Source: Candidatus Woesearchaeota archaeon
Lineage (GTDB): Archaea; Nanobdellota; Nanobdellia; Pacearchaeales; GW2011-AR1
Assembly (NCBI GenBank): GCA_964608765.1
Contig: CAZSPD010000001.1
Coordinates: forward strand, 6,373 to 70,372
Length of the DNA stretch: 64,000 nt
Direction: 5' to 3'
A model generated the notes under the pieces. The model was given only the letters and a program-made list of their open reading frames with translations. It was not told where the DNA came from and ran no database searches. Within the stretch, counting starts at the first letter, position 1. The number at the start of each line of letters is the position of its first letter. Shown here piece by piece: positions 7,010 to 60,106 of the stretch. The translations under genes were made by a program, and so were the position numbers.

Positions 7010-7249
7010 ATGGTTAAAAGTAAGATTAATCGTACGATTAATCGCAAAAAAGAGGATGTTTTGGAGTTAGGAATAATTGCTTCTTTGTCTAATTCTATTA
7101 CTCCCAAATCTACTCAAGAAATTGCAGATGAGATGAATAAACCTTGGCATTCTGTTCAAACACGCTGCTTAAGGCTCCAATTAAATAACAAGCTAATAGG
7201 GTTTAGAGTTGGAAGAATAAACCTTTGGCAGATAAAAAAGAGAAAATGA
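7010..7249 (+). CDS. Small putative winged-helix DNA-binding protein
   Basis: 79 aa, basic, with an HTH-like segment (TQEIADEMNKPWHSVQTRCLRL). Its stop overlaps the giant gene start as ATGA at 7246-7249. Confidence 0.45.
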   Translation: MVKSKINRTINRKKEDVLELGIIASLSNSITPKSTQEIADEMNKPWHSVQTRCLRLQLNNKLIGFRVGRINLWQIKKRK

Positions 7250-39893: not shown

Positions 39894-40850
39894 ATGAGGA
39901 TATTAGTTACTGGAGGAGCAGGATTTATTGGAAGCCATCTTTGCAGATTCCTTCTTGAAAAAGGAAATGAGGTAATTTGTTTAGATAATTTTTTTACAGG
40001 GAGGAAAAGAAATGTGGCTCCTTTGTTAAATAATCCTAAATTCAAGATAATTCCTCATGATATTACAGATACTCAGGTAAGATTGGATCAAAAAATACCT
40101 CAAGGAGTAGATCAAATTTATAATCTTGCTTGTCCTGCAGCCCCAATCCATTATCAATTTGATCCAATAGAAACAATTAAATCAAACACTATTGGAGTAA
40201 TAAATGTTTTGGAATTCGCAAAATTAAACGGAGCAAGAGTTCTTCAGGCGTCAACTTCAGAGATTTATGGAGAACCTTTAGAACACCCTCAAAAAGAAAC
40301 ATATAATGGAAACGTTAATACTCTTGGACCAAGAGCATGTTATGATGAAGGAAAAAGAGTGGCAGAGGCATTATTTACAAGTTATCATAGAAAATATAAA
40401 TTGCCTATAAGAATAGCAAGGATATTTAATACTTATGGGCCAAACATGAACAAAGAAGATGGAAGAGTCGTGAACAATTTCATTATTCAGGCATTGCAAG
40501 GAGAACCTCTTACAATTTATGGAGAAGGGAATCAAACTAGAAGTTTTTGTTATGTTGATGATCTAATTGAAAGTTTATACCGTATGATGAACCAAACCCA
40601 AACAATCGGTCCAATAAATCTGGGGAATCCAGGAGAATTTACAATAAATGATTTGGCAAAAAAAGTGATAAAAATGACTAAATCTAATTCAAAGATAATT
40701 TACAAAGAATTACCTCAAGACGACCCAACTCAAAGAAAACCAGATATAACTTTAGCAACTAATATACTAAAATGGAAACCTCGAATAAATCTTGACAGGG
40801 GTTTATCTAAAACTATTCCCTACTTTAAATCAATTCTTTTTCTTAAGTAA
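39894..40850 (+). CDS. uxs: UDP-glucuronate decarboxylase (UDP-xylose synthase), SDR family
   Basis: [17 protein letters not shown]...[15 protein letters not shown] and the downstream YDEGKR match UXS/ArnA-type decarboxylases along the full length. Confidence 0.8.
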
Positions 40851-41465: not shown

Positions 41466-41557
41466 CTAATAAATTATTTTTAAGGGTTAATAAATATGTC
41501 TTTACACTATTTTCAAAACAAAAACCTTTAAAACACTCTTAAATAAGAATATATTGT

Positions 41558-41628
41558 GCGTGGGTAGTTCAGCGGCAGAATCTCTGGCTTCCAACCAGAT
41601 GACCCGGGTTCGAATCCCGGCTCGCGCA
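41558..41628 (+). tRNA. tRNA-Gly (anticodon UCC)
   Basis: Acceptor GCGUGGG/CUCGCGC, anticodon stem UCUGG/CCAGA with loop CUUCCAA, T-arm CCGGG-UUCGAAU-CCCGG, 71 nt. Confidence 0.75.
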
Positions 41629-41640
41629 TATGAACCTAAA

Positions 41641-44113: not shown

Positions 44114-46495
44114 CTAAGATGTATCTAATCTTGATTTATCTTTTTCTTGTAACCCGTATTTTTCTAGCTGCTCTAAATCACTATTTATCATCATCTTAAC
44201 AAGTTCTTTGAATTTTGTTTTAGGTTTCCATCCTAGAACTTTTCTTGCTTTTGAAGGGTCAGCTAATAAATAATCAACTTCAGCAGGTCTATAAAATTGA
44301 GGACTAACCTTCACTACCATTTTTCCATTACATTTTCCAATCTCATTTATTCCTTTACCTTCCCATTTCACAGACATTCCAACACACTTGAATGACTCTT
44401 CTATAAATTCTCTAACTGAGTGAGTTTCACCTGTACCTATAACATAATTATCTGACTTGTCTTTTTGCATCATCATCCACATTGCTTCAACATAATCTCC
44501 TGCATATCCCCAATCTCTTTTTGCATCCATGTTTCCAATTTCAAAATACTCTTGGTATCCTAATTTTATTTTTGCAACAGAGTGAGTTATTTTACGAGTT
44601 ACAAATTGCTTCCCGCGTTTTGGAGAATTAGAAATAACTATTGTCCCCACACCAGCCATTAATTTTCCAGAAGCAGTTTCAATATCAAATACCCATTCTG
44701 GTTGATTTTCATGATAGAATATATTTTTAACTTCATTGTTTAGTTTAGCTAAATGATGGCAAATTTGAATTTGATTATTATTTTGTACTTTTCTTATAAA
44801 TGACCTTGAAATTCCTGTTTGTTTACAAATTTCTCTTTGGGAAATTTCATCATTTAATAATTCTTTAATTCTCTTTTCTTTCATCAAATTATTTGTAGGA
44901 GATAATAAATTTATTGAGTAATAACCATATCTCCCCTCTCTTTTTTCAAAGCTAATATTATAGTTTTGATTTGTAGTTTCTTTAATAAGAAAAATTAATC
45001 CTTGGGCAAGCAAAATAGAATTTGTTTTAAAATTTTTAAATTCGTAAATGCAGGGATTAGATTTCAATCCATCTGTCAGGTTATATCCAACTAAAAAAGA
45101 AAGTTTTATTTCTTTATCTGCATTTAAAATTCTGTTAGGAATTTTTTTAAAACCATCTTGTGTATAAATCTCTTTCCTTATAACCTTAAGATAACTAGAA
45201 TTTTTGTTTAACTTTATCTGCGTAGCAGTTCCATATTCTGTTTTATAATTTCTTTCTGTTATTGAACCTAAAGCTATTTTTTCCCATAATTTGGTTATTA
45301 ATTCCCTTATTTCTTTATTATTGTTGGTGAATTGCCCTTTTCCCTCCTCACTTACATATCCATCTCCAACCATCATTCCTAAAAACATAGCTTCTTCTTT
45401 TGATAACACTGATATTGTCTCTATTTTTGGAAATTCCCTTTGAAGGAGTTTTGTACCTATTTTTACTTCTTTAGATTTTAATTTATCTTTATTTTCATCA
45501 AACATATTATGATGATTTGTAGCTTCAATTATTCCATTTTTAGTGTTTATAGTTTTACAATGAAAATCCTCTTCTTGCTTTTTTCTTCTTGTAGCAGTCA
45601 TACAGTTTAAATCTACAAAATTTTCACCGTCCCATATTTCAGTGTTGCTTAATATCCATTGTTGGATATTTGATCCCTTTTCCTTAGGTTTTCTTATATC
45701 CTTTACTCTTACTATTGAGATTATATTAGATTTTTTCTCCCTAATTATTAGTGGAGTATTTTCAGATATACATTCATGGTTAAATAAAATTCCGTTACAA
45801 GCAAAAATATTATAACTTTCTCTATAATTTTGAGTTATATAGTATCCAAATGCTTTTGAAGCAGCATACGGGCTTCTAGGATGAAATGGAGTTGTTTCTT
45901 TCTGAGGTGTCTCTTGAACCTTTCCAAACATCTCTGATGTGGAAGCTTGATAAAATTTTATTTTTGGATTTAATATTCTTATAGCCTCTAGTATGTTTAT
46001 TACACCCAAGGCATTAATTTGTACAGTAGATATTGGTTGAGTCCAAGAATCAGGAACAAATGATTGTGCAGCTAAATTATAAATTTCATCAGGGTTTATC
46101 ACCCTTATTATCCTTATTATTGAGCCAAAATCTGTTACATCACCTGCAACTAATTTTATTTCCTTTCTTAAATGCCCAATTCTATCAAAAACATCCATGC
46201 TTGTTCTTCTATGTAATCCGTAAACTTCATACCCTTTTTTTATTAATAGTTCTGCAAGGTATGCTCCATCTTGTCCTGTGATGCCTGTAACAAGGGCTTT
46301 CTTCCCATTAGATTGTTCTTTATTATCTTTCATATTACTTTCCTGAGAAAGTTTAGGCTTTAATAAAGATATCTCGTCTTTTAATAATTCTATATCTTGC
46401 CTAACTCTAGAAAATGATTTCCTAATGTCCTTTTCATCCATGAATTCCTTAAAAAAGCGACATTTAAAAGTATATATGACTGTAAATATATACAT
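44114..46495 (-). CDS. gmd: GDP-mannose 4,6-dehydratase interrupted in-frame by a 382-aa intein. The track ORF carries a probably spurious ~54-aa N-terminal extension; the likely start is MKDNKEQ.
   Basis: Exteins align end to end with Gmd: ALVTGITGQDGAYLAELL...FACNGILFNHE | SPKRGKQFVTRKIT...GNMDAKRDWGYAGDYVEAMWMMMQ...FYRPAEVDYLLADPSKA. The inserted block begins with Cys and ends with Asn, followed by Ser. Confidence 0.85.
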   Translation of the reverse strand: MYIFTVIYTFKCRFFKEFMDEKDIRKSFSRVRQDIELLKDEISLLKPKLSQESNMKDNKEQSNGKKALVTGITGQDGAYLAELLIKKGYEVYGLHRRTSMDVFDRIGHLRKEIKLVAGDVTDFGSIIRIIRVINPDEIYNLAAQSFVPDSWTQPISTVQINALGVINILEAIRILNPKIKFYQASTSEMFGKVQETPQKETTPFHPRSPYAASKAFGYYITQNYRESYNIFACNGILFNHECISENTPLIIREKKSNIISIVRVKDIRKPKEKGSNIQQWILSNTEIWDGENFVDLNCMTATRRKKQEEDFHCKTINTKNGIIEATNHHNMFDENKDKLKSKEVKIGTKLLQREFPKIETISVLSKEEAMFLGMMVGDGYVSEEGKGQFTNNNKEIRELITKLWEKIALGSITERNYKTEYGTATQIKLNKNSSYLKVIRKEIYTQDGFKKIPNRILNADKEIKLSFLVGYNLTDGLKSNPCIYEFKNFKTNSILLAQGLIFLIKETTNQNYNISFEKREGRYGYYSINLLSPTNNLMKEKRIKELLNDEISQREICKQTGISRSFIRKVQNNNQIQICHHLAKLNNEVKNIFYHENQPEWVFDIETASGKLMAGVGTIVISNSPKRGKQFVTRKITHSVAKIKLGYQEYFEIGNMDAKRDWGYAGDYVEAMWMMMQKDKSDNYVIGTGETHSVREFIEESFKCVGMSVKWEGKGINEIGKCNGKMVVKVSPQFYRPAEVDYLLADPSKARKVLGWKPKTKFKELVKMMINSDLEQLEKYGLQEKDKSRLDTS
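44627..45772 (-). mobile_element. Intein with a LAGLIDADG homing-endonuclease domain inside gmd (host residues 242-623), inserted between E and S of the NHES motif
   Basis: Block A starts with Cys1 (CISENTPLI), block B is TNHH, the LAGLIDADG-like motifs are FLGMMVGDGY and FLVGYNLTDG, block F/G is VFDIETASG...GTIVISN, and the +1 residue is Ser. Confidence 0.75.
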
Positions 46496-46526: not shown

Positions 46527-48059
46527 GTGTCATCTAATATACTTATGAGTCAAAGTTTAAAGAAACAAAACCTTTCAAAATTGGTTTTAAAAAATTCAGG
46601 ATATTTATTTTCTACAAATATTATTTTAAAATTTGGAGGGTTAATATTTACATTATTAATTGCAAGGCTTTTACTTCCTGAATTATTTGGTATTTATGCT
46701 TTAGCACTATCAATAACTGTTTTAGCTTTAACATTTACTGATTTGGGAATAAATAATACTTTTCTAAGATATTTTTCAGAGTCGTATGGAAAAGGTGATA
46801 ATGCCAAGTCCAAAGCATATATTAATCATATTTTAAAAATCAAATTTTCTTTAATTTTTGTAGTTGTACTACTTTTAGCAGTTTCCTCAAAATTTATTGC
46901 TTACACAATATACAATAAGCCCTTTTTATTATATCCTCTTCTTTTTTCATGTCTTTTTGTATTAGTTGAATCTATATGGTCTTTATGGTCAACAGCATTC
47001 ATAGCCACTAATAATCTTAAACCACTTCCTCCACTTAATTTATTACTCCAATTTTCAAAAATTTCATTTTCAGTTTTAGCTATATTATTATTTTCATACA
47101 ATTTTAAAGTCCCAGGAATATTCATAAGTTTTTTTGCATCTGGGTTAATAGTTCTTATTTTAGCATCTATAATATTATATAAAAGAAATAAGGAAATTAT
47201 AAAATCTAGACCTAAGAAAATTAATCTATCTAGAATAAATAATTATTGGAAGTTTATGATTTTATCCAGTATATCTCTTGCATTTTTTACTTCAATAGAT
47301 ACATTAATTTTAGGAGGGGTTGTATCTTCAGAGTATATCGGATACTATCGGGCTTCTTCAAGTTTAATCTTTACTATTGCATCTTTACTTTCTTTATCTG
47401 GTGTTTTTTTACCTATATTCACTCAAATTAAAGGGGAGAGATTTGAAAGAGGAGTTAATAAAACTCTAAGGTATCTATTGTCAATTTCAATACCTGCAAC
47501 ACTGGGAATAATTGTTCTTGGGAGGTATTTAGTGTTTTTTATATACGGGAAAGAATATATGGGTGCAGTTCTTTCATTATATTCTTTATCTTTAATAATT
47601 TTCTCAAATCCCCTAATTGATTTATATTCCACACTATTACAATCTAAAGAAAAACCTAAAATAGTAGGGAAGTCAATATTATACACTTTATTTTTGAATA
47701 TTGTTTTGAATATTTTAGCAATTTTCTTATTTAAAGATTCTCCACAAATGATTGTTGTGGGTGTTGGGGCTTCTACTGCTATAAGTAGGTTTATTCTTCT
47801 AGGAATCTTAGTATTTTATTCAAAAAAATATTTTAATTTAAAACATCAGAATAATAAATTTTATACAATAATTTTGTCTTCATTAATAATGTTTGTGCCA
47901 GTATTTTTGTTTTACAAATTAGCAGACATAAATTTAATATCTGGAATTATAGGAATATTTATTGGGATAGCAATTTATTTACTAGCAATGATTTTATTAA
48001 AAGGTTTTTCTAGAGAAGATATAAACTTATTAAAGTCAATTGTAAAAAGAAAAAGATGA
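46527..48059 (+). CDS. Polysaccharide/oligosaccharide flippase of the MOP superfamily (Wzx/AglR-like)
   Basis: About 14 TM helices in a 510-aa protein, located in a glycosylation cluster. Confidence 0.65.
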   Translation: MSSNILMSQSLKKQNLSKLVLKNSGYLFSTNIILKFGGLIFTLLIARLLLPELFGIYALALSITVLALTFTDLGINNTFLRYFSESYGKGDNAKSKAYINHILKIKFSLIFVVVLLLAVSSKFIAYTIYNKPFLLYPLLFSCLFVLVESIWSLWSTAFIATNNLKPLPPLNLLLQFSKISFSVLAILLFSYNFKVPGIFISFFASGLIVLILASIILYKRNKEIIKSRPKKINLSRINNYWKFMILSSISLAFFTSIDTLILGGVVSSEYIGYYRASSSLIFTIASLLSLSGVFLPIFTQIKGERFERGVNKTLRYLLSISIPATLGIIVLGRYLVFFIYGKEYMGAVLSLYSLSLIIFSNPLIDLYSTLLQSKEKPKIVGKSILYTLFLNIVLNILAIFLFKDSPQMIVVGVGASTAISRFILLGILVFYSKKYFNLKHQNNKFYTIILSSLIMFVPVFLFYKLADINLISGIIGIFIGIAIYLLAMILLKGFSREDINLLKSIVKRKR

Positions 48060-49084
48060 GCAAATTAAATAAAAAGAAAATAATCAAGATTAATTTCAAG
48101 TATTTTTTTGAAGGGTTTAATCCAGAAGATAATTTTTTTACTAATACTCTTAGAGAAATGTATGAAGTTAAAATAAGTGATAATCCTGATTACATATTTT
48201 ATTCAGTTTATCCAGATATATCTTATAAAAGAAGTTTAACAAAGAAAGGAGATTTTGTGAAGAGAATTTCTCCAAGAGTATATATCTTTTTAAGAAAATT
48301 GTACTCTCAGATAATTTTATCTTTTAAAAGAAAACAAGAATTACCTGAAGTTCCAAAAGGGAATTTTGTAAAAATATTTTATGGGGCAGAACATACTAAG
48401 CCAAATATGAGAGAGTGTGATTGGGCATTTTCTACTTATTTTGAAGAAGAAATAAATAACTCTAGATACATGAGAATACCTCTTGTTTTATCAAATGATT
48501 ATCAATTAAAGAATTTAGGAGTACCTTCTCTTAAAAAACCAATTAATTTTAAAGGGATTAAAAAGAAAAAGACTAAATTTTGTAATTTTATTTATTCTCA
48601 AGAAATCTTAGAAAGAAATAATTTTTTTAAGACTCTTAATAAGTATAAAAGAGTAGATTCTCCTGGAAGGTGTATGACAAATATGCCCCCCATAAAGGGA
48701 AAAAATGCAAAAGAATCAAGAATATCCTATAATTGGGTGCTGGATAAATTAGATTTTTTAGAAGAGTATAAGTTCACTATAGCCTTTGAGAACTTCTCTA
48801 AGCCAGGGTGGGTAACAGAAAAACTAACTCATCCTATGTTAGTTAATAGTATCCCTATTTACATAGGATCTAAAGATATTTCTAAAGAGTTTAACACTAA
48901 GAGCTTCATAAATTATTCTGATTTTAAAAATATGAAGGAATTTATTGATTACATAATTAAAGTAGATAATGATGATAAGCTTTATGAAAAAATATTAAGT
49001 GAACCTTGGTATAAAGATAATAAACTCCCTAGAGATTGGGATATAGATAGGATAAAAAAACAGTTTAAAGAGATTTTTGGTTAA
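48056..49084 (+). CDS. GT10-like alpha-1,3-fucosyltransferase family glycosyltransferase
   Basis: The segment TIAFENFSKPGWVTEKLTHPMLVNSIPIYIG matches the FEN(S)..GYVTEK(L/I) acceptor/donor motif of GT10 fucosyltransferases. Confidence 0.6.
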   Translation: MSKLNKKKIIKINFKYFFEGFNPEDNFFTNTLREMYEVKISDNPDYIFYSVYPDISYKRSLTKKGDFVKRISPRVYIFLRKLYSQIILSFKRKQELPEVPKGNFVKIFYGAEHTKPNMRECDWAFSTYFEEEINNSRYMRIPLVLSNDYQLKNLGVPSLKKPINFKGIKKKKTKFCNFIYSQEILERNNFFKTLNKYKRVDSPGRCMTNMPPIKGKNAKESRISYNWVLDKLDFLEEYKFTIAFENFSKPGWVTEKLTHPMLVNSIPIYIGSKDISKEFNTKSFINYSDFKNMKEFIDYIIKVDNDDKLYEKILSEPWYKDNKLPRDWDIDRIKKQFKEIFG

Positions 49085-49119
49085 AATTTATTAGTTATTT
49101 GAATATTTAAAGATAAATA

Positions 49120-50094
49120 TTATTTGTAAGGAATTTTATTTTTGCTAACTTGTTTTTCAATCCAATGATAAGTTTCACGCATTCCTTCTTCTAAAGAATA
49201 TTTTGGTTTCCACCCCAATGAAGATATTTTTTTATTTGAGAAATACCTTGCTTCAACTCCGACAGGACCTTTAATATGTTTAATCCTAATGTTTTTATTT
49301 GCAACTTTTGCAATAATTTTAGCTAATTCATTAATTGAGATGTCTTTTGAGGGCCCGATATTAACTGCACTTTTTATATTTGAATGCATTAACAAGTTTA
49401 TAGCGTCTAATAAATCACTAACATAAACAAACACTCTCCTGGCTTTACCATCTCCCCAAACATCTATTTCTCCAGAACTTCCTTTTATTTCAGCTATTTT
49501 TCTTGATAAAGCTGCAGGAACTTTTTCTCTTCCTCCCCTCCAAGTTCCTTCAGGCCCATAGCAGTTTTGGAATCTGGCTATTTTTATTTCTGTTCCGTAT
49601 TTTTTTCCAAATGCTTGATATATTCTTTCTGAGTAAAGTTTTTCCCACCCATATTCATTATCCGGATTAGCAGGTATAGCTTCTTCTTCACTTATTTCTT
49701 TTTCTCCTTTTTCCATATTTCTGTATACACACACAGAAGAAGAAAAGAAAAGCTTTGGAACTTTAAACTCTTTTATAGCTATATGAGCCATATTAATATT
49801 TATTAGTGCATTATTATGCATTATATCGCATTCTTCTGAATGAATAAATCCCATACCTCCCATATCTGCTGCTAATTGATACACTTCATCAAACCCCCCT
49901 CCTATTGAAAGTGCTTTTCTACAATTTCCTCTTCCCCTTAAATCTAATATTAAAAATTCATCTGCTTTTGTTTTAGAAAATTCAGGGTATTTTATATCTA
50001 CACCCCTTACCCAATAACCTTCTTTTTTTAAATAAGTAACAAGATGACTTCCAATAAATCCTCCTGCTCCACAAACCAACGCCTTTTTCATCAA
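49120..50094 (-). CDS. gme: GDP-mannose 3,5-epimerase (SDR family)
   Basis: Full-length match to GME signatures: CGAGGFIGSHL, QLAADMGGMGFI, YGPEGTWRGGREKVPAA, WGDG..RR. Confidence 0.75.
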   Translation of the reverse strand: MMKKALVCGAGGFIGSHLVTYLKKEGYWVRGVDIKYPEFSKTKADEFLILDLRGRGNCRKALSIGGGFDEVYQLAADMGGMGFIHSEECDIMHNNALININMAHIAIKEFKVPKLFFSSSVCVYRNMEKGEKEISEEEAIPANPDNEYGWEKLYSERIYQAFGKKYGTEIKIARFQNCYGPEGTWRGGREKVPAALSRKIAEIKGSSGEIDVWGDGKARRVFVYVSDLLDAINLLMHSNIKSAVNIGPSKDISINELAKIIAKVANKNIRIKHIKGPVGVEARYFSNKKISSLGWKPKYSLEEGMRETYHWIEKQVSKNKIPYK

Positions 50095-50179
50095 TTTTTT
50101 TAAGCTTTTAGATTTTTAAGCTTTTATACTCTTATAGAGCATAATTAATTTTATATACCTTTTTTAAATAGAGTATCTT

Positions 50180-51115
50180 ATGGAAAACCCCACAATATCT
50201 GTAATAATGCCCGCATACAATACGGAAAAATATTTAGAAGAAAGCATCAAATCAATATTAAATCAAACCTTTACAAATTTCGAGTTTATAATAATAAATG
50301 ATGGTTCGAAAGATAACACTAAAAAGATTATAGAGATCTACAAGAAAAAAGATAAGAGGATAATTCTTTTAAACAATCCAAAGAATCTAGGATTGCAAGT
50401 TTCCTTAAATAGGGGTTTAAAATTAGCAAAAGGAAAGTATATCGCAAGAATGGACTCAGATGATATCTCTCTTTCGAATCGTTTTCAAATACAGATAAAC
50501 TTTCTTAATAGGAATAAAGATATATTTCTAGTAGGAGGATCGGCTATTGTAATTAATGAAAAAGGAGAAAAAGCAGGATGTTTTATTAAGAACGATAGTT
50601 CAAAAAGGATAAAAAAGAAACTTTTAAAATCAAATCCTTTTATTCACCCCTCAATTATGTTTAGAAATGAAAGGGTATATTACAGAGAAAAATTTGTGTG
50701 TTCAGAAGATTACGATCTTTATTTAAGATTATTGACTGATAATAAAAATATGAAAAATTTACCCAACGTCTTAATAAAATACAGGATAAGGAAAGATTCT
50801 TTTGTTTCAACAATGCCTTATCAAGAATTCTATTTCAGAAAGGCAAAAGAATTTTATCTTCAGAGAAAAAAAGATAATAAAGATGCTTATGAAAACCTTA
50901 AACCCCCCTCTAGTTCTCCAAATAATATTGATTTTGATAAACTTAATCAAAGAACAAAAATAATTGTTAAATTCCAAGATAACCAGATGAAAGAAGTAAG
51001 AAAAGAAATAAGAAAATATTTTAATAAATACGGATTTAACAAAAGATATGCAATGTACTATCTATTAAGTTTTTTACCCTTTAAAATAATAAAACTATTG
51101 AGAAAAATATTCTAA
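50180..51115 (+). CDS. Family 2 glycosyltransferase
   Basis: ISVIMPAYNTEKYLEESIKSILNQTFTNFEFIIINDGSKD together with DSDD are the GT-A/DXD signatures. Confidence 0.75.
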   Translation: MENPTISVIMPAYNTEKYLEESIKSILNQTFTNFEFIIINDGSKDNTKKIIEIYKKKDKRIILLNNPKNLGLQVSLNRGLKLAKGKYIARMDSDDISLSNRFQIQINFLNRNKDIFLVGGSAIVINEKGEKAGCFIKNDSSKRIKKKLLKSNPFIHPSIMFRNERVYYREKFVCSEDYDLYLRLLTDNKNMKNLPNVLIKYRIRKDSFVSTMPYQEFYFRKAKEFYLQRKKDNKDAYENLKPPSSSPNNIDFDKLNQRTKIIVKFQDNQMKEVRKEIRKYFNKYGFNKRYAMYYLLSFLPFKIIKLLRKIF

Positions 51116-51149
51116 TTTAGGAGAGATTGCCCTGTTTTATATTTTATTC

Positions 51150-51335
51150 CTTGACACACCAAACTTCAATTTAGTCTTCTATTTTTTTTTAAGAATCACT
51201 AATATCTCCTTCCTGCAAGCCATATCTCAATTAAGTAATGTCTCCAGATATTTTTTACCCCACTTATCTAGTGATAGTTCTTTTATGGTTTTTATAGATT
51301 CGTTTATTATTTTGTTCATTTTTCTATTGTAAGCT
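51150..51335 (-). pseudogene. Decayed 3'-end fragments of a second methyltransferase copy (~51150-51185) and a second GT4 copy (~51241-51330)
   Basis: The segment 51241-51322 is about 85% identical to 52330-52410, which is the 3' end of the GT4 gene. The segment 51156-51182 repeats the 3' end of the methyltransferase gene (CACCAAACTTCAATTT) with an in-frame stop. Confidence 0.5.
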
Positions 51336-51377
51336 TTAAACTCTTTCTTTTTTAAGCATTATTCTTATAGAAACCAT

Positions 51378-52316
51378 TTAATTTGAACACCAAACTTCAA
51401 TTTGATCCCCGATTTTAAGCACATTAACTGCCCACGTTAGGGGAGTGAATATAATTTCTAAAAATTTATTGAACACTTCTTTTCTTTTTTTAATTCCTAA
51501 TAAGAAATATAAAGAAATAACAAATTGATTTGGTCGTGAATTGTATCTTATCTTAGATATTTTAAATCCGTAATTTTCTAAGAGAAATTTTAAATTTTTA
51601 TCTGAATAATTAATTAAATGCCTTGGAACATCTAGTTGGTGCCAGTTTTTCCTAAATATTTTGTAAGCCAGTGAATTGCTATTTGGAACACCTATTATTA
51701 ACACTCCTTTTTTTTTCAATATTCTCTTAATTTCCATTATTACTTCGTGAGGATTATTTGTATGTTCAAGAACATGATTCATTGTTATTATATCAAAAGA
51801 ATTTTGGGGGTATCTAGATTTTATCAAATCTAATTTTTTTATATTAAGGCTATATCTTTTATTTTCTTCTGCACTAAAATCTCCTGGTTCAATTCCTCCT
51901 ACATCTAAACCCAAAGCTTTCATCTCATACAAAAATTGCCCGCTTCCAGAGCCTATGTCTAATAATTTTAACCCTGGTTTAATGTTTGTTCCTCTTGACA
52001 TAAACTTTAGAGGAAATAGCCCTGCTTTTAATAAAAAGTTTTTATTTTTTTTATCAAAATAAGTTTTATACAACAGCATCTTTATCTTTAATTTTTTAGA
52101 GTTAGTATCTATTTTTTTTAGAGAATAATATTTTTTTGAGGGGTAGTATTTTTTAAGTTCAGAATTTGATGGAGATGGATTTAAAAATATAGATTTACAT
52201 CTCTTACATTTATATAGAGAAAATATCTGGGGAATATTAAGATTTTTATCATATTGTTTAAAAATTAGCCTTATATTTTTGCTTCCACATATCTCACATT
52301 TATTTATAAAATTCAT
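51378..52316 (-). CDS. Class I SAM-dependent methyltransferase with an N-terminal zinc ribbon
   Basis: CEICGS...CKRCKS zinc ribbon, followed by the LDIGSGSGQF motif I of SAM methyltransferases. Confidence 0.7.
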   Translation of the reverse strand: MNFINKCEICGSKNIRLIFKQYDKNLNIPQIFSLYKCKRCKSIFLNPSPSNSELKKYYPSKKYYSLKKIDTNSKKLKIKMLLYKTYFDKKNKNFLLKAGLFPLKFMSRGTNIKPGLKLLDIGSGSGQFLYEMKALGLDVGGIEPGDFSAEENKRYSLNIKKLDLIKSRYPQNSFDIITMNHVLEHTNNPHEVIMEIKRILKKKGVLIIGVPNSNSLAYKIFRKNWHQLDVPRHLINYSDKNLKFLLENYGFKISKIRYNSRPNQFVISLYFLLGIKKRKEVFNKFLEIIFTPLTWAVNVLKIGDQIEVWCSN

Positions 52317-52317
52317 T

Positions 52318-53469
52318 TTATTTTAGTAAGATATCTAGATATTTTTTACCCCACTTATCTAATGATAATTCTTTTACAGTATTTATAGATTCTTCTATAA
52401 TCTTATTTTTAATGTTTTTATTATTTAATATTGTAATTGCCTTAGTAGAATCATTTTTATCAAAAAACTCAATAATTATACCGTTTTTATTATCTTTAAT
52501 TATTTCTTGTTTTGAGTCTTTTGAACAAACCAACATGCAGCCAGAAGCCATTGCTTCAGATACAACAAGGGTGGGGGCCCCTCCTTCATACCTTGATAAG
52601 CAAAAGAAGATATCCGAAGCATTGTAGTAATAAGGTATTTTTTCTCTAGAGACATTTTCTCTATAGATTATAAATTTTTCATTTAGAAATTGTTTATTTT
52701 TTTTATAGTCTGCACCAACAACTATGAGCCTATAGTTTTTATTTAATTTGTATATTTCTTTAGATATTTTAACTACTCTATCCAATCCCTTTATCCAATA
52801 TCCTGCTTTTGAAAGATGCAACCCATAAATGTTGTTCTCATTCAATTGAAGCTCTTTTCTCATTTTCTTTTTATTTCGATATTTAAAATCCTTTAATTTT
52901 ACACCTGTTCTTATGACAATTAAATCTTTTCTTCCTTTGTAAGTTTTATTTATTTCTTCTTTTACTCTATTTGATACACTTATTATTTTATCTGCATGTT
53001 TTGTTGGAGGTTTTTCAATAAGATACCCGTATAATAACATGGGGGAAAGGAATATCTTTTTTATTAGATTAAATCTTTGTAAGTGCACTTTATAATATGG
53101 GTAAGTTGCCCCGTGATAGGTATGTATTACTCTTTGATTTTTTTGTTTTTTGTAGTTACTCATCCAATATCCCCAAACAGCATGAGAATTTATTATATCA
53201 AAATAATTATTTTTTAAATATCTTCTAACTTTTCTATTAAACAATATATCGTCTATAAAAATTGGAGTTTTGCACTTTAATCCAATATATTTTATGTTTT
53301 TTTCATTAACTATTTCATTTTTATCTGATTTGTATATCCAAGTAATTTGAACATCCAAATCTTCGTTTTTTACGTAGTCAATTAGATTTTGTTGATATAG
53401 ACTCACTCCCCCTACAAATTGAGGTCCAGAACCGGTTATAAAACATATTTTTGTTTTTTTATTTTTCAT
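52318..53469 (-). CDS. Family 4 glycosyltransferase (GT-B)
   Basis: C-terminal EGGAPTLVVSEAMASGCMLVCS resembles the GT4 E-x7-E region. Confidence 0.7.
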   Translation of the reverse strand: MKNKKTKICFITGSGPQFVGGVSLYQQNLIDYVKNEDLDVQITWIYKSDKNEIVNEKNIKYIGLKCKTPIFIDDILFNRKVRRYLKNNYFDIINSHAVWGYWMSNYKKQKNQRVIHTYHGATYPYYKVHLQRFNLIKKIFLSPMLLYGYLIEKPPTKHADKIISVSNRVKEEINKTYKGRKDLIVIRTGVKLKDFKYRNKKKMRKELQLNENNIYGLHLSKAGYWIKGLDRVVKISKEIYKLNKNYRLIVVGADYKKNKQFLNEKFIIYRENVSREKIPYYYNASDIFFCLSRYEGGAPTLVVSEAMASGCMLVCSKDSKQEIIKDNKNGIIIEFFDKNDSTKAITILNNKNIKNKIIEESINTVKELSLDKWGKKYLDILLK

Positions 53470-53470
53470 T

Positions 53471-54382
53471 TTATTCTAAAATTTTGTTATATTTTTTTGA
53501 TGAAAACGAAATAATCCATAAACCTAAATTTCTTACGAAGTTTTTTCTTATAGTTATGTTTCTTATGCCTTTATCTGTATCCCTTTTCTTTTTAAGTATA
53601 GCTACACTAGGCAGTAAAATATAAATCCTAAAAAATTTATTCCATACTTTTAAATGTCTTCTTGAAAAAATTATATCATTCTTAAATCTTATTAATAATT
53701 TTCTCTTATCTTCTTGAGAATCAATGCTTTTACCTTTTTTGTGGATTATCTTCACAAAAGGAATTGAAACTATTTTCCATTTTTTTTCTTTTGCTCTTAA
53801 ACAATAATCTGTATCTTCCAATAAGTATGGAGAATACTTTTCATCTAATAATCCTATTTCTTTTATAACTTCTTTTTTTATTATAAAACACGCCCCCATA
53901 ACATGGTCCACTTCAAATATTTCTTTTTTATTATCATACAATTCTAAACTTATCTTCCATCCTTTAATATATCCTCCAATGTTTTGCAGGCTTCCATCAG
54001 GATATCTTATATTACATCCCAATATGCCTACATTTTTATTTTCCTCTCCAACTTCAATAATCTTATCTAACCAATATTTCTCAATAATCTCACAATCATC
54101 ATTCAAAAGAATAAAGTAATCTGGATTATACTCCTTTATTGCTTTTTTCATCCCAATATTATTTGACTTTGAGAAGCCTAGATTTTTATTATTTGAAATT
54201 ATATCTACCCATTTAAACTCTTTTTTTATTTTTTTAGCTATTTCGCCCTTTCCACTATCATCAACAAAATAAACTTTATAATTTTTATAATGCGTTTTTT
54301 TCTTTAAACTTAAAAGGCACTCTTTAGCTAGTTTTTCTTGATTATAAGTACTGATTATTATTGCAATTTTTTTTTCTTTCAT
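53471..54382 (-). CDS. Family 2 glycosyltransferase
   Basis: IAIIISTYNQEKLAKECLLSL...VYFVDDSGKG, and a DXD motif. Confidence 0.7.
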   Translation of the reverse strand: MKEKKIAIIISTYNQEKLAKECLLSLKKKTHYKNYKVYFVDDSGKGEIAKKIKKEFKWVDIISNNKNLGFSKSNNIGMKKAIKEYNPDYFILLNDDCEIIEKYWLDKIIEVGEENKNVGILGCNIRYPDGSLQNIGGYIKGWKISLELYDNKKEIFEVDHVMGACFIIKKEVIKEIGLLDEKYSPYLLEDTDYCLRAKEKKWKIVSIPFVKIIHKKGKSIDSQEDKRKLLIRFKNDIIFSRRHLKVWNKFFRIYILLPSVAILKKKRDTDKGIRNITIRKNFVRNLGLWIISFSSKKYNKILE

Positions 54383-54401
54383 TTCATTTTAGAATTTTTT
54401 A

Positions 54402-55205
54402 TTATCCAAACCAATATCCTAATTTATATGGAATTCCCCTTAATATTCTTAATAAGAAACTCTTAAGGCTCCATCTCAAGTGTTTGAACTTAAATTTTCT
54501 AAATCTATCTTTTTTAGTTATCAAATCTCTGTAAAGCCCAGTCTTGTAAAAATCTTTTGTTGTTTTTCCCCATCTCCACTGCTTTTTGAAAAGCAGCTTC
54601 AGAGTATCTGGCTCCATATGTTCTACAGCATTCTTAATCATTCCATTCTTATTTGTAATTTTTTTAAACTCATACCAAGTTATTATGTGGTCTTGGGCAG
54701 CACATATGTTTATGTACTTTTTAGGGATATTTTTATGAGCTTTCATTAATAATTTTCTTTTAAAAAATCTGGGTAAAACAATATCATCATCAGGTTCCCA
54801 ATATGTCTGAACAAGCATTCTATCTGCATCATAAAGAGAAGGTAAAAACTTTTTTCGATTATACGCCCTTTCCCAAAACCATAAACTATCATACTCTTTC
54901 ATTTTTTTAACTGCTCTTTCAATAGCTGTTTTTTCTAATATTTGATCAGAATCAAGTAATAAAACATATTCCCCTTTACTTTTCTCAGTTCCAAGAATTC
55001 TAGCTTCAAGAAGTTTCCCTTTACACATAATTATTTTTGCTTTAAACTTCTTTGCAATTTCAAGAGTTTTATCTTTACTATAACTATCAACAATAATTAT
55101 CTCAATATTTTTATATGTCTGATTTTTAACTGCATTTAAACACTGCTCAAGTGTACTCTCAGAGTTGTATGTTGGAATATTTATCGAAACTAATTTTTTT
55201 GCCAT
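54402..55205 (-). CDS. Family 2 glycosyltransferase
   Basis: VSINIPTYNSESTLEQCLNAVKNQTYKNIEIIIVDSYSKD. Confidence 0.7.
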   Translation of the reverse strand: MAKKLVSINIPTYNSESTLEQCLNAVKNQTYKNIEIIIVDSYSKDKTLEIAKKFKAKIIMCKGKLLEARILGTEKSKGEYVLLLDSDQILEKTAIERAVKKMKEYDSLWFWERAYNRKKFLPSLYDADRMLVQTYWEPDDDIVLPRFFKRKLLMKAHKNIPKKYINICAAQDHIITWYEFKKITNKNGMIKNAVEHMEPDTLKLLFKKQWRWGKTTKDFYKTGLYRDLITKKDRFRKFKFKHLRWSLKSFLLRILRGIPYKLGYWFG

Positions 55206-55241
55206 ATTCTATTTCTATTTAATAAATGTTTATAAATATTA

Positions 55242-56393
55242 TTAATTGCATGATAATGTTTTTTTGATTTTTTCAATAAAATTACTTGTGCTAGAGACAA
55301 TGTTGAGTATCTTTTTTGGTTTTACTTTTGATTTTATAAAATTTTCTAGTGTTTCATTTATACTTTTAATCATCTTTTTATCGTCGTATACTTCTTTTAT
55401 TTTGTAAAATTGAGGTATATCTTTTACTAAATTATAGTATCCTCCTTTGTCTACAGCTATTAATGGTTTCCCTAAACTTAATGCTTCAAATGGAACTATC
55501 CCAAAATCTTCTACAAATGGGATAAATATTACTGCATTACATTCTTCATATAATTTCAGAAATTCTTTATTCTCTAAATTTATTTTTATTTCAATATTTT
55601 TACATCCTTCAGATAATTCTTTTATTTTTTCATAATATTTTTTATTTTCCATATTTCCTGCAATTATCAACTTTTTATTAGGATGTTTTTTAGAAAAAAC
55701 TTTCCAAGATTCAATTAATAAGTCCTGTCTTTTAGGGGGATTTATACGAGAAGGATATAAAAAATAATCTTTATTCTTTGTATTTACTTTTTTGGATTTA
55801 CCTATATCTGTAGGAGGATAAATTACACTAACTTTTTTATTTTTAATTAAATTTCTTTTTTTTGCTCTCTCTAAACTTAATTCTGAATTAAATATAGCAT
55901 AATCTATTTTTTTCCAAGCAGTTTTTTCAAATATTTTATATATTTTTACAACAGAAACATAAAATGCTTTTGAAAAAATATTTTTGTATTTTTTATTTAA
56001 ATTCCACTTTACTATTTCTTCACTAGCATCTCTCAAAGGAGTGTGGATATATGCATATGTTTTCCCAGGCTTATAATTTCTAAATAAAATAAATTCTCCA
56101 ACACCTGAAGTTGATATTAAAAATAAATCATATTTTTTTAAGGGAATTTTAGAAAATAAAGAACTTATTAAAAACACTCCTCTCAATATATTTGAATGTG
56201 AAAACTTCCTAAAAAACTTATTTCCAATAATATTTATTTTAAATTTTTTAAATTCTTCAAAAGTATTTTCTTTTTCATACACCCAAGTATATAATTCAAT
56301 ATTTTCAAAATTTTTTAATAATTCAAGAACAGTTTTCTCTGCACCCCCCCTACTTTTTATCCAAGGATGAAATATTGCTATTTTCTTTTTCAT
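55242..56393 (-). CDS. Family 4 glycosyltransferase (GT-B)
   Basis: FIPFVEDFGIVPFEALSLGKPLIAVDKGG is the GT4 C-terminal signature. Confidence 0.7.
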   Translation of the reverse strand: MKKKIAIFHPWIKSRGGAEKTVLELLKNFENIELYTWVYEKENTFEEFKKFKINIIGNKFFRKFSHSNILRGVFLISSLFSKIPLKKYDLFLISTSGVGEFILFRNYKPGKTYAYIHTPLRDASEEIVKWNLNKKYKNIFSKAFYVSVVKIYKIFEKTAWKKIDYAIFNSELSLERAKKRNLIKNKKVSVIYPPTDIGKSKKVNTKNKDYFLYPSRINPPKRQDLLIESWKVFSKKHPNKKLIIAGNMENKKYYEKIKELSEGCKNIEIKINLENKEFLKLYEECNAVIFIPFVEDFGIVPFEALSLGKPLIAVDKGGYYNLVKDIPQFYKIKEVYDDKKMIKSINETLENFIKSKVKPKKILNIVSSTSNFIEKIKKTLSCN

Positions 56394-59071
56394 TTTATAA
56401 AAGTCATGTTATCTAATCCAGCATACTCTCCAGAAACAGCACTAAATTCTTCTAATACCCTTATATCTTCAGGGGAATCAATCTTCCATATTTTTAATGG
56501 ACCTCTTAATCCTGAAAAATAAAAGAATTCATTTAACTTCATTCCCCCATATGTTTCAAGATATGTTTTTAATGGATCTGGCTCAGAGTGAGCTAATTTC
56601 ACGCCCCTATACTCTTTATTTGGATCATTCATTAAATATAATTTAGAAATAAGACTATCCACAACTCTTGGAGATAAGTAAATTAATGCTCCTTCATTAT
56701 CTAATTGAACTCCTAACTCTGTTTGAGACAATAATGGAATAATATATGCTGCACTATTTATGCCCTCTTCAAAATCATATAGCGTACCATCATAGTAAAC
56801 ATACCTCATAGGTATACTTATTTGATTTCCATTGTAAATATAAACAGCATTTGGTTGTTTAAATGTTCCATTTTCCTTTTCAAGAATTATTCCTCCTATT
56901 CCAGAATACTCTTTAGGGATAAATATTTTTTTTCCATCTTTTTCATAAACAATATCATCTTCTATTCCATACCCTCCATTGTAGATTCTTATTGTTCCAT
57001 TTTTTGTTTCTTGAGTTTGACTTGGATTAGATGCCATAACAGGAATAAATGAAAACCTATCTTTATTTTTCTCATCACTTCCAATACTACTATATGCAGA
57101 ATATTTTCCAATATCTGTTGGGTCAATTAGTAAATATGATACATTTTGAGATTTCATGAAGCTTAATGCAGTTACAGGTTTAGGAGTTGTTAATAAGTAT
57201 CTTCCTATAAGATGATCCCAGTACAAGTTAGCATGTCCGCCATCAGTTACAGTTGGCCTCTCTCCTAAATACTGCACCCAATATCCATAATCCCACCAGT
57301 GAACAAATATATCTTCTGAATTTGTATTTTCTCGTACCCATTCCATTGAATACTGCCATTGTAAATTTGCAGAAGATCCAATCTGTACTGATTGTGCTTT
57401 AATTATTTTTATGTAATTAACTGATGTAAATATAAGTAATATTAATACTCCAATTAAAGCAGCATAAATAACTAATTTGATTATATCATCTTTAACTAAT
57501 TTAGAATATTCATACACCTTTATAACACCATAAATTCCAATAAAACAAATAACAGGAGAAAGAATAAATAATAATCTAACTGCACTTATACCTGCTATAG
57601 TCATAAAAAACACTAAAAGAATAATTATAATATTTTCACTCTTAGTTTCTATTTTATCTTTAAAGTATATGTGTACAAATACAGCAAAAAATAAGAATAT
57701 GCTTCCAATATAAAATAATTTACTAATAAATGAATCTCCATTTAATATCGATTCTGTAGAATATCTATGGAAAAATATTCCAACAACCATCAATACCCAA
57801 GATAATGAAAATAATGTTTTATTTTTCTTTTTATCTATTCCTTTTGAAAATTCAATTCCTACTATTGAAGCTCCAAATATAAATAACCAGAAAAATAATT
57901 TTCCAAATTGGCCCATTACATCTAAAGTATAAGGTATAGCATTCTCAGCAACAGTTTCACCAACTCTTCCACCTCCAAAAGGTCTCAATATGTTTTGAAT
58001 TATCCCAGATAAAGAGAATCCTGTACTTTGATTAAGCATTAAACTAATAATTATAGCAAATATTATTGAAAGCCCAACACTTATAATTATCCTATATTTA
58101 CCTATTTCTTTTAATTTTTTATTTTTTGATTTTAACAGAAGATAGTCAATTAAAGTGAAAATTAATACAAAGGGAACTATTATTCCTTTTACACTTAAAA
58201 TCAGTCCCGCTATTGAACTAAGAGGATAAGAAAAAATAAAACTTAAAAGTATAAATGAAATAAACCAGAAAATATAGAATAAAAGATACTCTTTGAGATT
58301 ATTCCTATTTTCTTCATTATTCATTTTATTTGTAATCCACAATAATAATACAGTTAAGGGAATTATTAGTAAAGTGAATGCTGCAACACCACTCCAAGCA
58401 ACAATATTAAATATTGTAAAAAATCCAGTTACAATTCCTAACACTATTGCCATCTTTACTGAATTTTTCTTTTCAATTTTTTGCATAGCTATAACAAAGG
58501 ATAATAATGCAAGGAAAAATGCAAACATTCCTAAAGGTTCGTGATCAGATACTCCAGCCATAGTCCTAAATAAATAAGCAGGGATTATTGCAAGGAAAAA
58601 ACTAGATAAAAGTGCTGTAAGTCTTGAATTAGTAAGTTTCAATATTAAAAAGAAAAATACTAACATTCCTAAAGCAAAGAATATTACCGGATATATTATA
58701 TTAACATATCTTAAGCTAATCTCACTTGAAAATTTACTCATTATTTTATACATAAAGACTATTGTGTGTGGAAGGAGTTCTCCGCTGTACGGGACTTTAA
58801 GTGAAGGGTACCTCATTGAATCATATTCAGGATAACTACCATGCTCATTTAAAACTTCAGCAAGTCTTAAAAAATAAAATGCATCTAAATCAGCTGTAAC
58901 ATATTCATCTGTTGTAGCATCTTTAAGCAAATGCATATTATTTGTTCTTATTACTGTAGTAAAAGCTATAACTGCAATAAGCAAAATAGCAGTTAGAATA
59001 ACAAGAACTTTTTTTTGATTAATAAAATCAAAAACTCTTTTAGCTACCTTTTTTACTTTTTCTTTACTCAT
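56390..59071 (-). CDS. aglB: Archaeal oligosaccharyltransferase AglB (STT3 homolog)
   Basis: 13-TM N-terminal domain, the catalytic WWDYGYW motif (FVHWWDYGYWVQ), and a C-terminal soluble domain. Confidence 0.9.
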   Translation of the reverse strand: MSKEKVKKVAKRVFDFINQKKVLVILTAILLIAVIAFTTVIRTNNMHLLKDATTDEYVTADLDAFYFLRLAEVLNEHGSYPEYDSMRYPSLKVPYSGELLPHTIVFMYKIMSKFSSEISLRYVNIIYPVIFFALGMLVFFFLILKLTNSRLTALLSSFFLAIIPAYLFRTMAGVSDHEPLGMFAFFLALLSFVIAMQKIEKKNSVKMAIVLGIVTGFFTIFNIVAWSGVAAFTLLIIPLTVLLLWITNKMNNEENRNNLKEYLLFYIFWFISFILLSFIFSYPLSSIAGLILSVKGIIVPFVLIFTLIDYLLLKSKNKKLKEIGKYRIIISVGLSIIFAIIISLMLNQSTGFSLSGIIQNILRPFGGGRVGETVAENAIPYTLDVMGQFGKLFFWLFIFGASIVGIEFSKGIDKKKNKTLFSLSWVLMVVGIFFHRYSTESILNGDSFISKLFYIGSIFLFFAVFVHIYFKDKIETKSENIIIILLVFFMTIAGISAVRLLFILSPVICFIGIYGVIKVYEYSKLVKDDIIKLVIYAALIGVLILLIFTSVNYIKIIKAQSVQIGSSANLQWQYSMEWVRENTNSEDIFVHWWDYGYWVQYLGERPTVTDGGHANLYWDHLIGRYLLTTPKPVTALSFMKSQNVSYLLIDPTDIGKYSAYSSIGSDEKNKDRFSFIPVMASNPSQTQETKNGTIRIYNGGYGIEDDIVYEKDGKKIFIPKEYSGIGGIILEKENGTFKQPNAVYIYNGNQISIPMRYVYYDGTLYDFEEGINSAAYIIPLLSQTELGVQLDNEGALIYLSPRVVDSLISKLYLMNDPNKEYRGVKLAHSEPDPLKTYLETYGGMKLNEFFYFSGLRGPLKIWKIDSPEDIRVLEEFSAVSGEYAGLDNMTFIK

Positions 59072-59107
59072 TAAAACTAAAGAAAATCACTATTTAAAAA
59101 CCTTAGT

Positions 59108-60106
59108 CTAAAATTTGATAAACAATAAAAATCCCAATATAATTATAATTATCTGGAAAATATTTATAAGATTTACAACTTCATTTTCATAAACTTTTTT
59201 ATTTGGTTTTATCTTTTTTAATAAATATATTGAAAGGTGTTCTAACCCATATATTTTATCATACAATAAATCTAAGCTTCCATCTGGATTTGGTTTTCCA
59301 AAACTCTGTTTTTTTAATCCCCCCCTTAATTTTAAGATAGTTTCAAGTATATATGGGATAAAGAAAAATAAAGTTATTTTTTCAACATTCCCTAGTATTG
59401 CCATACACGCAATAGCTGCACCTATTGCATAGGTTAATGTGTCTCCTGGGAATACTTTTGCTGGATTTGCATTAAACATGTAAAATGCAATTAAAGAAAC
59501 AATTAAACAAAGCCCTACAACACTCAACCAAGAATTACCTGTTAAATAAGTAACTAAAGACATAGCTCCTATAAGGAGTATTCCCTGCCTTGCCTCTAAT
59601 CCATTAAATCCTGCTAAAAAATTAAATGTAGTTGTTGCACCTATCATTCCAAGAGGTATAATAAGGAGAGGGAACAGCAACCCTAGTTCCATCCCCAAAA
59701 CAGATGACTCTCCTGCATTAATCACCATTAATGGAATAGCAGAAATAAATACTAAAGCTATTCTAGAACGCTTGGACAACCCCCCTTTTTTCCACCCAAA
59801 TAAATCATCTATTAATCCTACTCCTGAAACTAATAATAAACTAGTAGTCATAGCAAATATCTTTATAGAAACTTCATCAAGTCTTTTAAAATAAAATGTT
59901 TGAAGTGCAATATATGTCAGTATCCCTATTATTGCCCCAATAACTACAATTATGCCTCCAGAACCAGCAACATTTTTTTGTTTATCATATTTATTCATAT
60001 CCTCCCAAAGCAATCCTATTTGTTTTGCTTTTTTTATCCAAAAAGGCATTGCAAGATATGTACAGAAAAAGCTTATAAAAACAGTCAAGATTATCAAAGG
60101 TTCCAT
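59108..60106 (-). CDS. aglH: Dolichyl-phosphate sugar-1-phosphate transferase of the MraY/WecA/GPT family (AglH-like)
   Basis: Polytopic protein with GLIDDLFG (a DDxxG-type Mg-binding motif) and the MraY/GPT loop signatures. Confidence 0.7.
   Translation of the reverse strand: MEPLIILTVFISFFCTYLAMPFWIKKAKQIGLLWEDMNKYDKQKNVAGSGGIIVVIGAIIGILTYIALQTFYFKRLDEVSIKIFAMTTSLLLVSGVGLIDDLFGWKKGGLSKRSRIALVFISAIPLMVINAGESSVLGMELGLLFPLLIIPLGMIGATTTFNFLAGFNGLEARQGILLIGAMSLVTYLTGNSWLSVVGLCLIVSLIAFYMFNANPAKVFPGDTLTYAIGAAIACMAILGNVEKITLFFFIPYILETILKLRGGLKKQSFGKPNPDGSLDLLYDKIYGLEHLSIYLLKKIKPNKKVYENEVVNLINIFQIIIIILGFLLFIKF

Follow-up and report, generated by a model that had tools for sequence, protein, structure and literature searches.

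Inteins in which a HINT splicing domain is split by a double-motif LAGLIDADG endonuclease are known from solved structures, that is, TliVMA and PhoVMA (7qss, 7qst), PI-TkoII (2cw7), PI-PfuI (1dq3) and PI-SceI (1vde). Additional elements are a "stirrup" in PI-PfuI and PI-TkoII and a region for DNA recognition in PI-SceI. Here we analyzed a 64,000-nucleotide stretch of contig CAZSPD010000001.1 from a Candidatus Woesearchaeota archaeon, in the following called the window. Its gmd gene, which codes for GDP-mannose 4,6-dehydratase (Gmd), carries an insert of 382 codons within the loop motif NHES. The insert is predicted to have the same architecture as the solved inteins, with a small helix-turn-helix as its accessory DNA-binding element. 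We consider it, with a probability of roughly 0.85, to be a class-1 intein of the canonical kind which encloses a LAGLIDADG homing endonuclease and interrupts gmd in a DPANN archaeon (Pacearchaeota/Woesearchaeota-like). A published precedent in the same host gene is the intein of Thermosynechococcus sp. TA-1 / CL-1 gmd, which is likewise full-length and endonuclease-containing and whose site and sequence are unstated (PMC9403480).

The insert and its host gene

The insert lies in an open reading frame of 793 codons (44114..46495, minus strand) whose translation reads ...YNIFACNGILFNHE^CISENTPLII...AGVGTIVISN^SPKRGKQFVTRKIT..., the caret marking here and below the splice junctions or the insertion point. 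It comprises 1146 nt (44627..45772, minus strand), is in-frame and stop-free and begins with Cys1 (45770-45772) and ends with Asn382 (44627-44629), followed by Ser+1 of the host protein (44624-44626). At the base composition of the window (29.6% GC, stop probability 0.080 per codon) 382 stop-free codons are expected by chance with a probability of about 1.5e-14. The composition of the insert itself is host-like with 26.8% GC overall and 17.5% GC at third codon positions. A preliminary description of this DNA had proposed a 382-residue LAGLIDADG intein at NHE^S of Gmd, and the window translation reproduces its length and both of its end points exactly.

The precursor gene probably extends from 44114 to 46441 on the minus strand and then codes for a 775-residue precursor and a spliced enzyme of 393 residues. 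The host protein is recognized by the TIGR01472 gmd model (460.7 bits, cut-off 415) in two stretches which bracket the insert and by Pfam GDP_Man_Dehyd (E = 1.7e-135). The N-extein (45773..46441, minus strand) ends with ...GILFNHE and contains, according to the translation, the NADP site GITGQDG as well as STSEMFG and YAASK, that is, the catalytic Ser/Thr-x-Glu and Tyr-xxx-Lys. The C-extein (44114..44626, minus strand) opens with the Ser+1 nucleophile in SPKRGKQFVTRKIT and runs through the stop codon. When the insert is removed, the protein aligns without gaps to 11 solved Gmd sequences, namely Aquifex Gmd (2z1m, 455 bits, gapless through ...GILFNHESP.RG..FVTRKIT...) and ten further ones including those from human, E. 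coli, P. aeruginosa and Arabidopsis. The exteins are thus contiguous and complete, as had been claimed, and the alignment with Gmd homologs fixes the insertion point exactly between FNHE and SPKRG. NHES is a conserved Gmd loop and is uninterrupted in all solved Gmd structures compared. We take this loop to be nucleotide-sugar-binding rather than part of the catalytic Ser/Thr-x-Glu...Tyr-xxx-Lys set, and to call it a catalytic motif was loose wording. In our view gmd is one functional gene, neither a fusion nor a pseudogene.

Splicing domain, endonuclease and helix-turn-helix module

For conservation within the family we aligned the window copy with 75 complete relatives, 76 sequences in total. 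The N-terminal splicing half is formed by residues 1-118 (45419..45772, minus strand), as delimited by family conservation, the predicted structure and Foldseek, and the C-terminal half by residues 336-382 (44627..44767, minus strand) with blocks F and G. Block B is T85-N-H-H88 (codons of Thr85 to His88 at 45509-45520), block F is WVFDIETASGKLMAGVG and reads WVFD363IET (Asp363 at 44684-44686), and block G is TIVISN with the penultimate Ser381 and the terminal Asn382. Invariant in all 76 sequences are Pro7, Thr85, His88, Gly132, Gly138, Lys209, Asp234 and Thr250 and, towards the C-terminus, Trp360, Asp363, Glu365, Thr366, Gly374, Gly376 and Asn382. Residue 1 is Cys in 59 members, Thr in 16 and Ser in one; the penultimate residue is His (68), Ser (6) or Ala (2), and position 372 is most often Cys (47), then His (16) and Met (6). 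The C-extein opens with S[PE].RG in each of the 75 complete loci, and Ser+1 is present in the window as well. A class 3 intein, with a non-nucleophilic residue 1 and the Trp(B)-Cys(F:4)-Thr(G) set (PMC2807308), is excluded by Cys1 and by Asp363 instead of Cys in block F.

The AlphaFold2 model of the insert (31 sequences as input) has a mean predicted local distance difference test score (pLDDT) of 90.8 and a predicted template modelling score of 0.88. It is beta-rich at residues 1-99 and 347-381 and alpha/beta in between, and the N-terminal half is all-beta with a pLDDT of about 95. By this model the insert has the HINT fold. Comparison of the model with the PDB using Foldseek returned intein-endonucleases at the top, that is, TliVMA (7qss, E = 7e-20), PhoVMA, PI-TkoII (2cw7), PI-PfuI (1dq3) and PI-SceI. 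These solved archaeal-type inteins match with E-values between 7e-20 and 2e-11 and a probability of 1.0, whereas sequence identity is only 11-16% and the host proteins are different. The free-standing endonucleases I-SceI and I-DmoI (E of about 1e-7 to 1e-6) and then WhiA follow.

The putative double-motif endonuclease domain (44897..45418, minus strand, residues ~119-292) is delimited by its motifs, the model helices and Foldseek. Its LAGLIDADG-type motifs are FLGMMVGDG with Asp137 (45362-45364) and FLVGYNLTDG with Asp234 (45071-45073), and in the model the two LAGLIDADG helices correspond to residues 125-137 and 220-233. All 76 members have Asp234, and all but one have Asp or Glu at position 137 (75 of 76). 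Thus Cys1, the TNHH block, both LAGLIDADG-like motifs, the terminal Asn and Ser+1, all of which had been listed beforehand, could be located.

Between the endonuclease domain and block F the insert has a further module (44768..44896, minus strand, residues ~293-335, EISQREICKQTGISRSFIRKVQ), which is modelled as three helices (295-307, 312-319 and 323-330) and which we read as an accessory helix-turn-helix. The matches to HTH_28, HTH_7 and Trp repressor (E = 0.007-0.03) are all below the cut-offs, and region 4 of SigK (E = 5.9e-4) and the helix-turn-helix of AcrIIA15 (8jfr, E = 0.022) are matched as well; these weak matches from Pfam, NCBIfam and PDB agree with one another. The helix-turn-helix behaves as a clean module; 21 of the 76 family members have it and the other 55 lack it.

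One relative, the intein of P0012, has an insertion of about 50 residues just before the first LAGLIDADG motif, with a Cys/His pattern (CCYCNHIFARKSNYDKHIDKC) resembling a zinc finger. The Gmd intein family would then have another kind of accessory module besides the helix-turn-helix.

Distribution of the insertion site

The preliminary description had suggested that Gmd might be an uncatalogued host and NHE^S a new insertion site. This suggestion does not hold. We scanned one genome per species (185,579 species) and found a relative of the intein in 120 genomes, from which 80 loci were retrieved. In 75 of these 80 an intact intein is located at exactly FNHE^x...N^S[PE].RG, which puts the number of species-representative genomes with an intact homologous intein at this very site at 75 or more. 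The archaeal hosts belong to the Nanoarchaeota/DPANN and the Patescibacteria hosts to Saccharibacteria, Liptonbacteria and Peribacteria. Further hosts are Omnitrophota, Chloroflexota, many Solirubrobacterales and Thermoleophilaceae (Actinomycetota), Gemmatimonadales, Myxococcales, Zetaproteobacteria, Abditibacterium and the cultured Thiospirillum jenense DSM 216.

Protein searches lead to the same result. A search with the intein only gave 30 clusters, 28 of which have precomputed GDP_Man_Dehyd domains, the other two being short fragments. In an exhaustive profile search against 1.84 billion representatives, 174 matches reached E <= 1e-30; the majority of the best ~60 are 650-770 residues long with the intein starting at about residue 180-200, which is the Gmd pattern, and long polymerase-type hosts come next. 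In a further search, with 908 protein clusters at E <= 1e-100, the site is occupied in 119 of the 121 top clusters. NCBI and JGI records already contain such proteins, named simply GDP-mannose 4,6-dehydratase, and the NCBI nr entries of this name among the matches of the intein search come from Woesearchaeota, Pacearchaeota and Omnitrophota. Where such proteins of 670-790 residues go simply under this name in public records, an intein is concealed. The public NHE^S inteins, for example those of a member of the Nanoarchaeota (L001), Pacearchaeota RIFCSPHIGHO2_01_FULL_37_14 (L002), T. jenense DSM 216 (L026) and many Solirubrobacterales, share the site and the blocks with the window copy, are full-length homologs of it (E = 1e-48 to 1e-172) and are unannotated. 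In the profile search the nearest sequence relatives outside Gmd are inteins of family-B DNA polymerases (P0204, P0215, P0217, P0232; E = 1e-60 to 1e-46, full length). They differ in host and site and score much lower, with ~170-220 bits, than full-length representatives of Gmd size, which reach 230-467 bits.

Gmd as an intein host has also appeared in print. A comparative genomics study of Thermosynechococcus from 2022 lists a full-length intein in gmd, at an unstated position (PMC9403480). Apart from this paper, our literature search found no mention of Gmd as an intein host and no characterisation of the element. The main tables of Novikova et al. (2016) give UDP-glucose/GDP-mannose dehydrogenase as intein host and do not list Gmd. 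Other papers that touch on both inteins and GDP-mannose are unrelated or appear to be so. The element is thus plentiful in public data and has been mentioned in print, and the window intein is a moderately divergent new member of an existing, widespread and under-described Gmd intein allele; the window copy itself adds no new principle. Ter Ndse-1/-2 of InBase, from a nucleoside-diphosphate-sugar epimerase of Trichodesmium, might be inteins at the two Gmd sites described below; in the literature searched, Ndse is not mentioned.

Within the 76 sequences we distinguish three subgroups. The DPANN subgroup, to which the window copy and the loci L001-L004 belong, has Cys1, a length of 382 residues, the helix-turn-helix, Met at position 372 and Ser-Asn or Ala-Asn at the end. 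A subgroup of 16 centred on Patescibacteria and Omnitrophota has Thr1 (TVASFMPM...), 387-404 residues, the helix-turn-helix, His372 and a terminal His-Asn. The large bacterial group with 55 members has Cys1 (one Ser), about 340 residues, no helix-turn-helix, mostly Cys372 and mostly His-Asn at the end. The window copy is 58-63% identical to its own subgroup. The family thus offers natural variants for mechanism work, that is, Cys1, Ser1 and Thr1, with and without the penultimate His, and with and without the helix-turn-helix. It also has a host outside the usual replication, repair and ATPase genes, a sugar-nucleotide enzyme, and one site is common to DPANN archaea, Patescibacteria and many free-living bacteria, as expected from homing into an almost invariant target.

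Three observations concern other members of the family. The Thr1 loci (L005-L018, L020 and L045, 16 of 76; for example L006 at 2998-4167) open with T[VI]ASFMPM and close with His-Asn^Ser. Thr1 had been unobserved among the natural inteins in InBase as of 2009 (Tori et al., PMC2807308). Two Gmd proteins, P0189 (1087 aa) and P0213 (1043 aa), have two inteins each, and probably also P0302, P0307 and P0317. In P0189 and P0213 one intein is at NH[E/S]^S and the second at YQA[S/G]^S[S/T]E, directly before the catalytic Ser/Thr-x-Glu; junctions seen at this second site are YQAS^SSEMFG and YNAG^SSEEFG. There are thus two or more sites at which inteins are inserted in Gmd. The Thr1 clade and the second site are more unusual than the window copy. 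Finally, in L068 (OY970157.1, a complete Solirubrobacteraceae chromosome) the N-extein frame is broken by a stop (I*PARDLGRSFNHE) some 11 codons ahead of FNHE, while the intein is intact; this could be a gmd pseudogene which keeps its intein or a long-read frameshift error.

Empty sites in close relatives

The 120 best matches of the spliced exteins include Gmd proteins with 85-90% identity, and all of them have 320-405 residues, the closest ones 342-405, and are thus intein-less. Two contigs, L081 and L082, carry such a Gmd (P0042, 88% identical) in the same gene order as in the window, GH3-epimerase-SecF-SecD-gmd, and the flanking proteins are 73-81% identical to those of the window. The DNA of L081 and L082 reads ...TTTAACCATGAA^TCTCCAAAG... 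with an empty site exactly where the window carries the 1146-nt insert, and the intein-less site sequence of L081 is ...GGAATTCTTTTTAACCATGAA^TCTCCAAAGAGAGGAAAACAA.... The empty sites in such close relatives mean that a gain or a loss has taken place within the lineage of the window.

The intein itself has its relatives elsewhere. It is 63% identical to the inteins of the DPANN loci L001, L002 and L004, whose exteins are only 49-57% identical to those of the window. That the intein is more similar than the host gene is a signature of horizontal acquisition. In contrast to the public Gmd inteins, the host lineage of the window has intein-free closest members. The nearest relatives of the intein are found in distant Gmd proteins and the closest Gmd proteins are intein-free, as homing would lead one to expect. 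The initial call of a LAGLIDADG intein at NHE^S is borne out by the sequence blocks, their conservation in the family, the predicted fold and the syntenic empty site.

Is the intein functional and mobile?

Several observations weigh against a canonical, splicing and homing intein. The first is that the domain libraries are nearly silent. Pfam Intein_splicing (PF14890) has no match to the insert at E <= 0.1, LAGLIDADG_3 reaches 22.1 bits where the gathering score is 22.5 (E = 1.9e-4), and weak matches exist to the intein-bearing NCBIfam models PRK14898 (7.4e-7) and PRK07773 (0.007). A sequence search of the PDB with the insert gives a weak helix-turn-helix match alone (AcrIIA15), so that the comparison of the predicted fold was needed. 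The recognition of the intein therefore rests on the family alignment and the predicted fold, and Pfam and NCBIfam alone would have missed it. One might thus imagine a permanent insertion of a DNA-binding or regulatory domain into Gmd, or an artefact of the assembly; besides the silent Pfam model, nothing specific speaks for this. Such an insert would split a loop of the Rossmann-type core which is contiguous in all solved Gmd structures. Moreover, every intein junction residue is present and the predicted fold is intein-like, 75 genome assemblies independently show this insert in frame, and the exact 793-residue product is also found in NCBI and Logan data. We regard a permanent domain or an artefact as hardly credible, and the insert is almost certainly an intein.

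The second observation concerns the splicing chemistry. The DPANN inteins depart from the family norm by the extra helix-turn-helix, by Ser for the penultimate His and by the absence of a block-F His or Cys in the window copy. The window copy thus has neither of the two usual helpers of Asn cyclisation, as the penultimate residue is Ser381 and block-F residue 372 is Met, and splicing could be slow or conditional. It could even be that the intein is splicing-defective or strongly conditional, with gmd being inactive or the supply of GDP-fucose controlled by redox state or temperature. In favour of this can be said that the family mostly has His and Cys/His at the two positions, that Cys1 is a redox-sensitive nucleophile and that there are reports of other inteins which splice conditionally. 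Yet the combination of Cys1, Met372 and Ser or Ala381 is kept in the four other DPANN loci L001-L004 with intact frames, which argues for function of the window copy. All other splicing residues are intact, and so are the downstream fucose-using genes. Inteins without the penultimate His are known to splice. We thus hold a defective or strongly conditional intein to be very unlikely, and the intein very probably splices productively. If it does so by an unusually assisted or conditional route, the GDP-fucose supply for N-glycosylation would be post-translationally switchable. A more far-reaching reading, which we think quite improbable, is that the Gmd NHE^S family is a large, cross-domain and essentially undescribed allele with natural variation of the splice-site chemistry. 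In this reading the DPANN branch of the window has lost both helpers and gained the helix-turn-helix, and its sister branch in Patescibacteria and Omnitrophota pairs Thr1 with the block-F His.

The third group of observations concerns mobility. The flanks of the insertion point (45 nt on each side) are identical to the empty allele in 75 of 90 positions (83%), and the whole gene is 82.8% identical; since both values agree, no co-conversion tract is visible. The nearest sampled intein is only ~63-64% identical, the best value being that of P0002 over a partial sequence. Since no sampled donor is closer than ~64% and the GC content is host-like, the acquisition is not recent and the endonuclease may be inactive. 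Accordingly, an intein which splices and leaves a working Gmd could have become a resident, vertically inherited element at a late stage of the homing cycle, with an endonuclease no longer active in homing. The distance to the nearest sampled intein, the fully host-like composition and the flanks without co-conversion signal all fit such an element. On the other hand, both acidic residues of the LAGLIDADG motifs are kept, and Gly132, Gly138, Lys209, Gly235, Thr250 and Ser252 are invariant or nearly so in the 76 sequences. The endonuclease domain is of full length and confidently folded in the model, and there are the empty sites in very close relatives. A purely resident intein appears unlikely to us, and we lean towards an endonuclease which is still active.

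Proposed mechanism

We suggest the following steps by analogy with characterised class-1 inteins. Translation would give the 775-residue precursor. Cys1 would then undergo an N-to-S acyl shift aided by Thr85 and His88 of block B, and the N-extein would be transferred to the hydroxyl of Ser+1. Cyclisation of Asn382, aided by Asp363 of block F, would free the intein, and an O-to-N shift would rejoin FNHE and SPKRG by a peptide bond within the NHES loop. This would yield an active Gmd with about 393 residues, able to supply GDP-4-keto-6-deoxymannose to a Fcl-like reductase, a GT10 fucosyltransferase and the AglB N-glycosylation cluster.

The freed intein would act as a site-specific endonuclease with Asp137 and Asp234 as catalytic residues, and the helix-turn-helix presumably adds DNA contacts. 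The target would be the near-invariant gmd DNA which codes for GILFNHESP.RG, in the intein-less form ...TTTAACCATGAA^TCTCCA..., and repair of the cut would copy the intein into the empty allele.

Start of gmd and genomic context

The gmd gene probably starts at Met19 of the longest reading frame (46441), the first 18 codons being untranslated. This start is suggested by an N-terminal extension conserved in the closest intein-less relatives and by an upstream TATA-like box (catatatac, some 30 nt ahead of the ATG at 46441). The N-terminal segment KSFSRVRQDIELLKDEISLLK of the window Gmd is kept in the intein-less P0033, P0040, P0048 and P0054, and the extension of the intein-less relatives (for example ...VKESFFKVKQDINELKREISSIK...) matches DIRKSFSRVRQDIELLKDEISLLK of the window. 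Met55 (46333) was considered since the DPANN intein-bearing relatives open at M-KK-ALITG, and was dropped in favour of Met19. The extension (46334..46441, minus strand) comprises about 35-45 residues, looks amphipathic or coiled-coil-like (...[KE]SFSKVKxDIxxLKxEIxSLK...) and is absent from Gmd outside the archaeal lineage of the window.

Upstream of gmd the window codes for a glycoside hydrolase of family GH3, an epimerase/dehydratase of the short-chain dehydrogenase/reductase (SDR) type, SecF and SecD. On the other side of gmd and divergently transcribed lies a glycan cluster. It comprises a Wzx-type flippase (46527..48059), the GT10 fucosyltransferase (48056..49084), an SDR (49120..50094) with GDP-L-fucose synthase as its best, weak match (132.8 bits, cut-off 500), glycosyltransferases of the GT2 and GT1/GT4 types and a methyltransferase, AglB/STT3 (56390..59071) and a GT4 phosphosugar transferase (59108..60106). 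The downstream fucose-using genes of the cluster are intact. A second Gmd equivalog, which might relax the selection on splicing, was sought and not found in the window; the open reading frames 39894..40850 and 49120..50094 are other SDRs. The fucose supply of the cluster thus appears to depend on the spliced gmd. AglB/STT3 fits an archaeal host, and the named close relatives are Pacearchaeota, Woesearchaeota and Diapherotrites.

Compared with L081 and L082 the glycan side (46527..60106) is variable, with a flippase of 49% identity and a different gene content, whereas the SecD/SecF side is 73-81% identical. Thus gmd borders on a hypervariable island of surface-glycan genes. The longest reading frame of SecF starts at 41554, and its first part (41554..41637, plus strand) overlaps a tRNA-Gly(TCC) at 41557-41629; the real start of SecF is therefore further downstream. 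Translated from 41638, SecF has 301 residues and matches SecD_SecF_C. The window further contains an open reading frame for a giant protein with 5208 codons (7225..22851, plus strand) and two genes for HerA/DUF87-type ATPases (8..2302 and 30399..32426, both plus strand).

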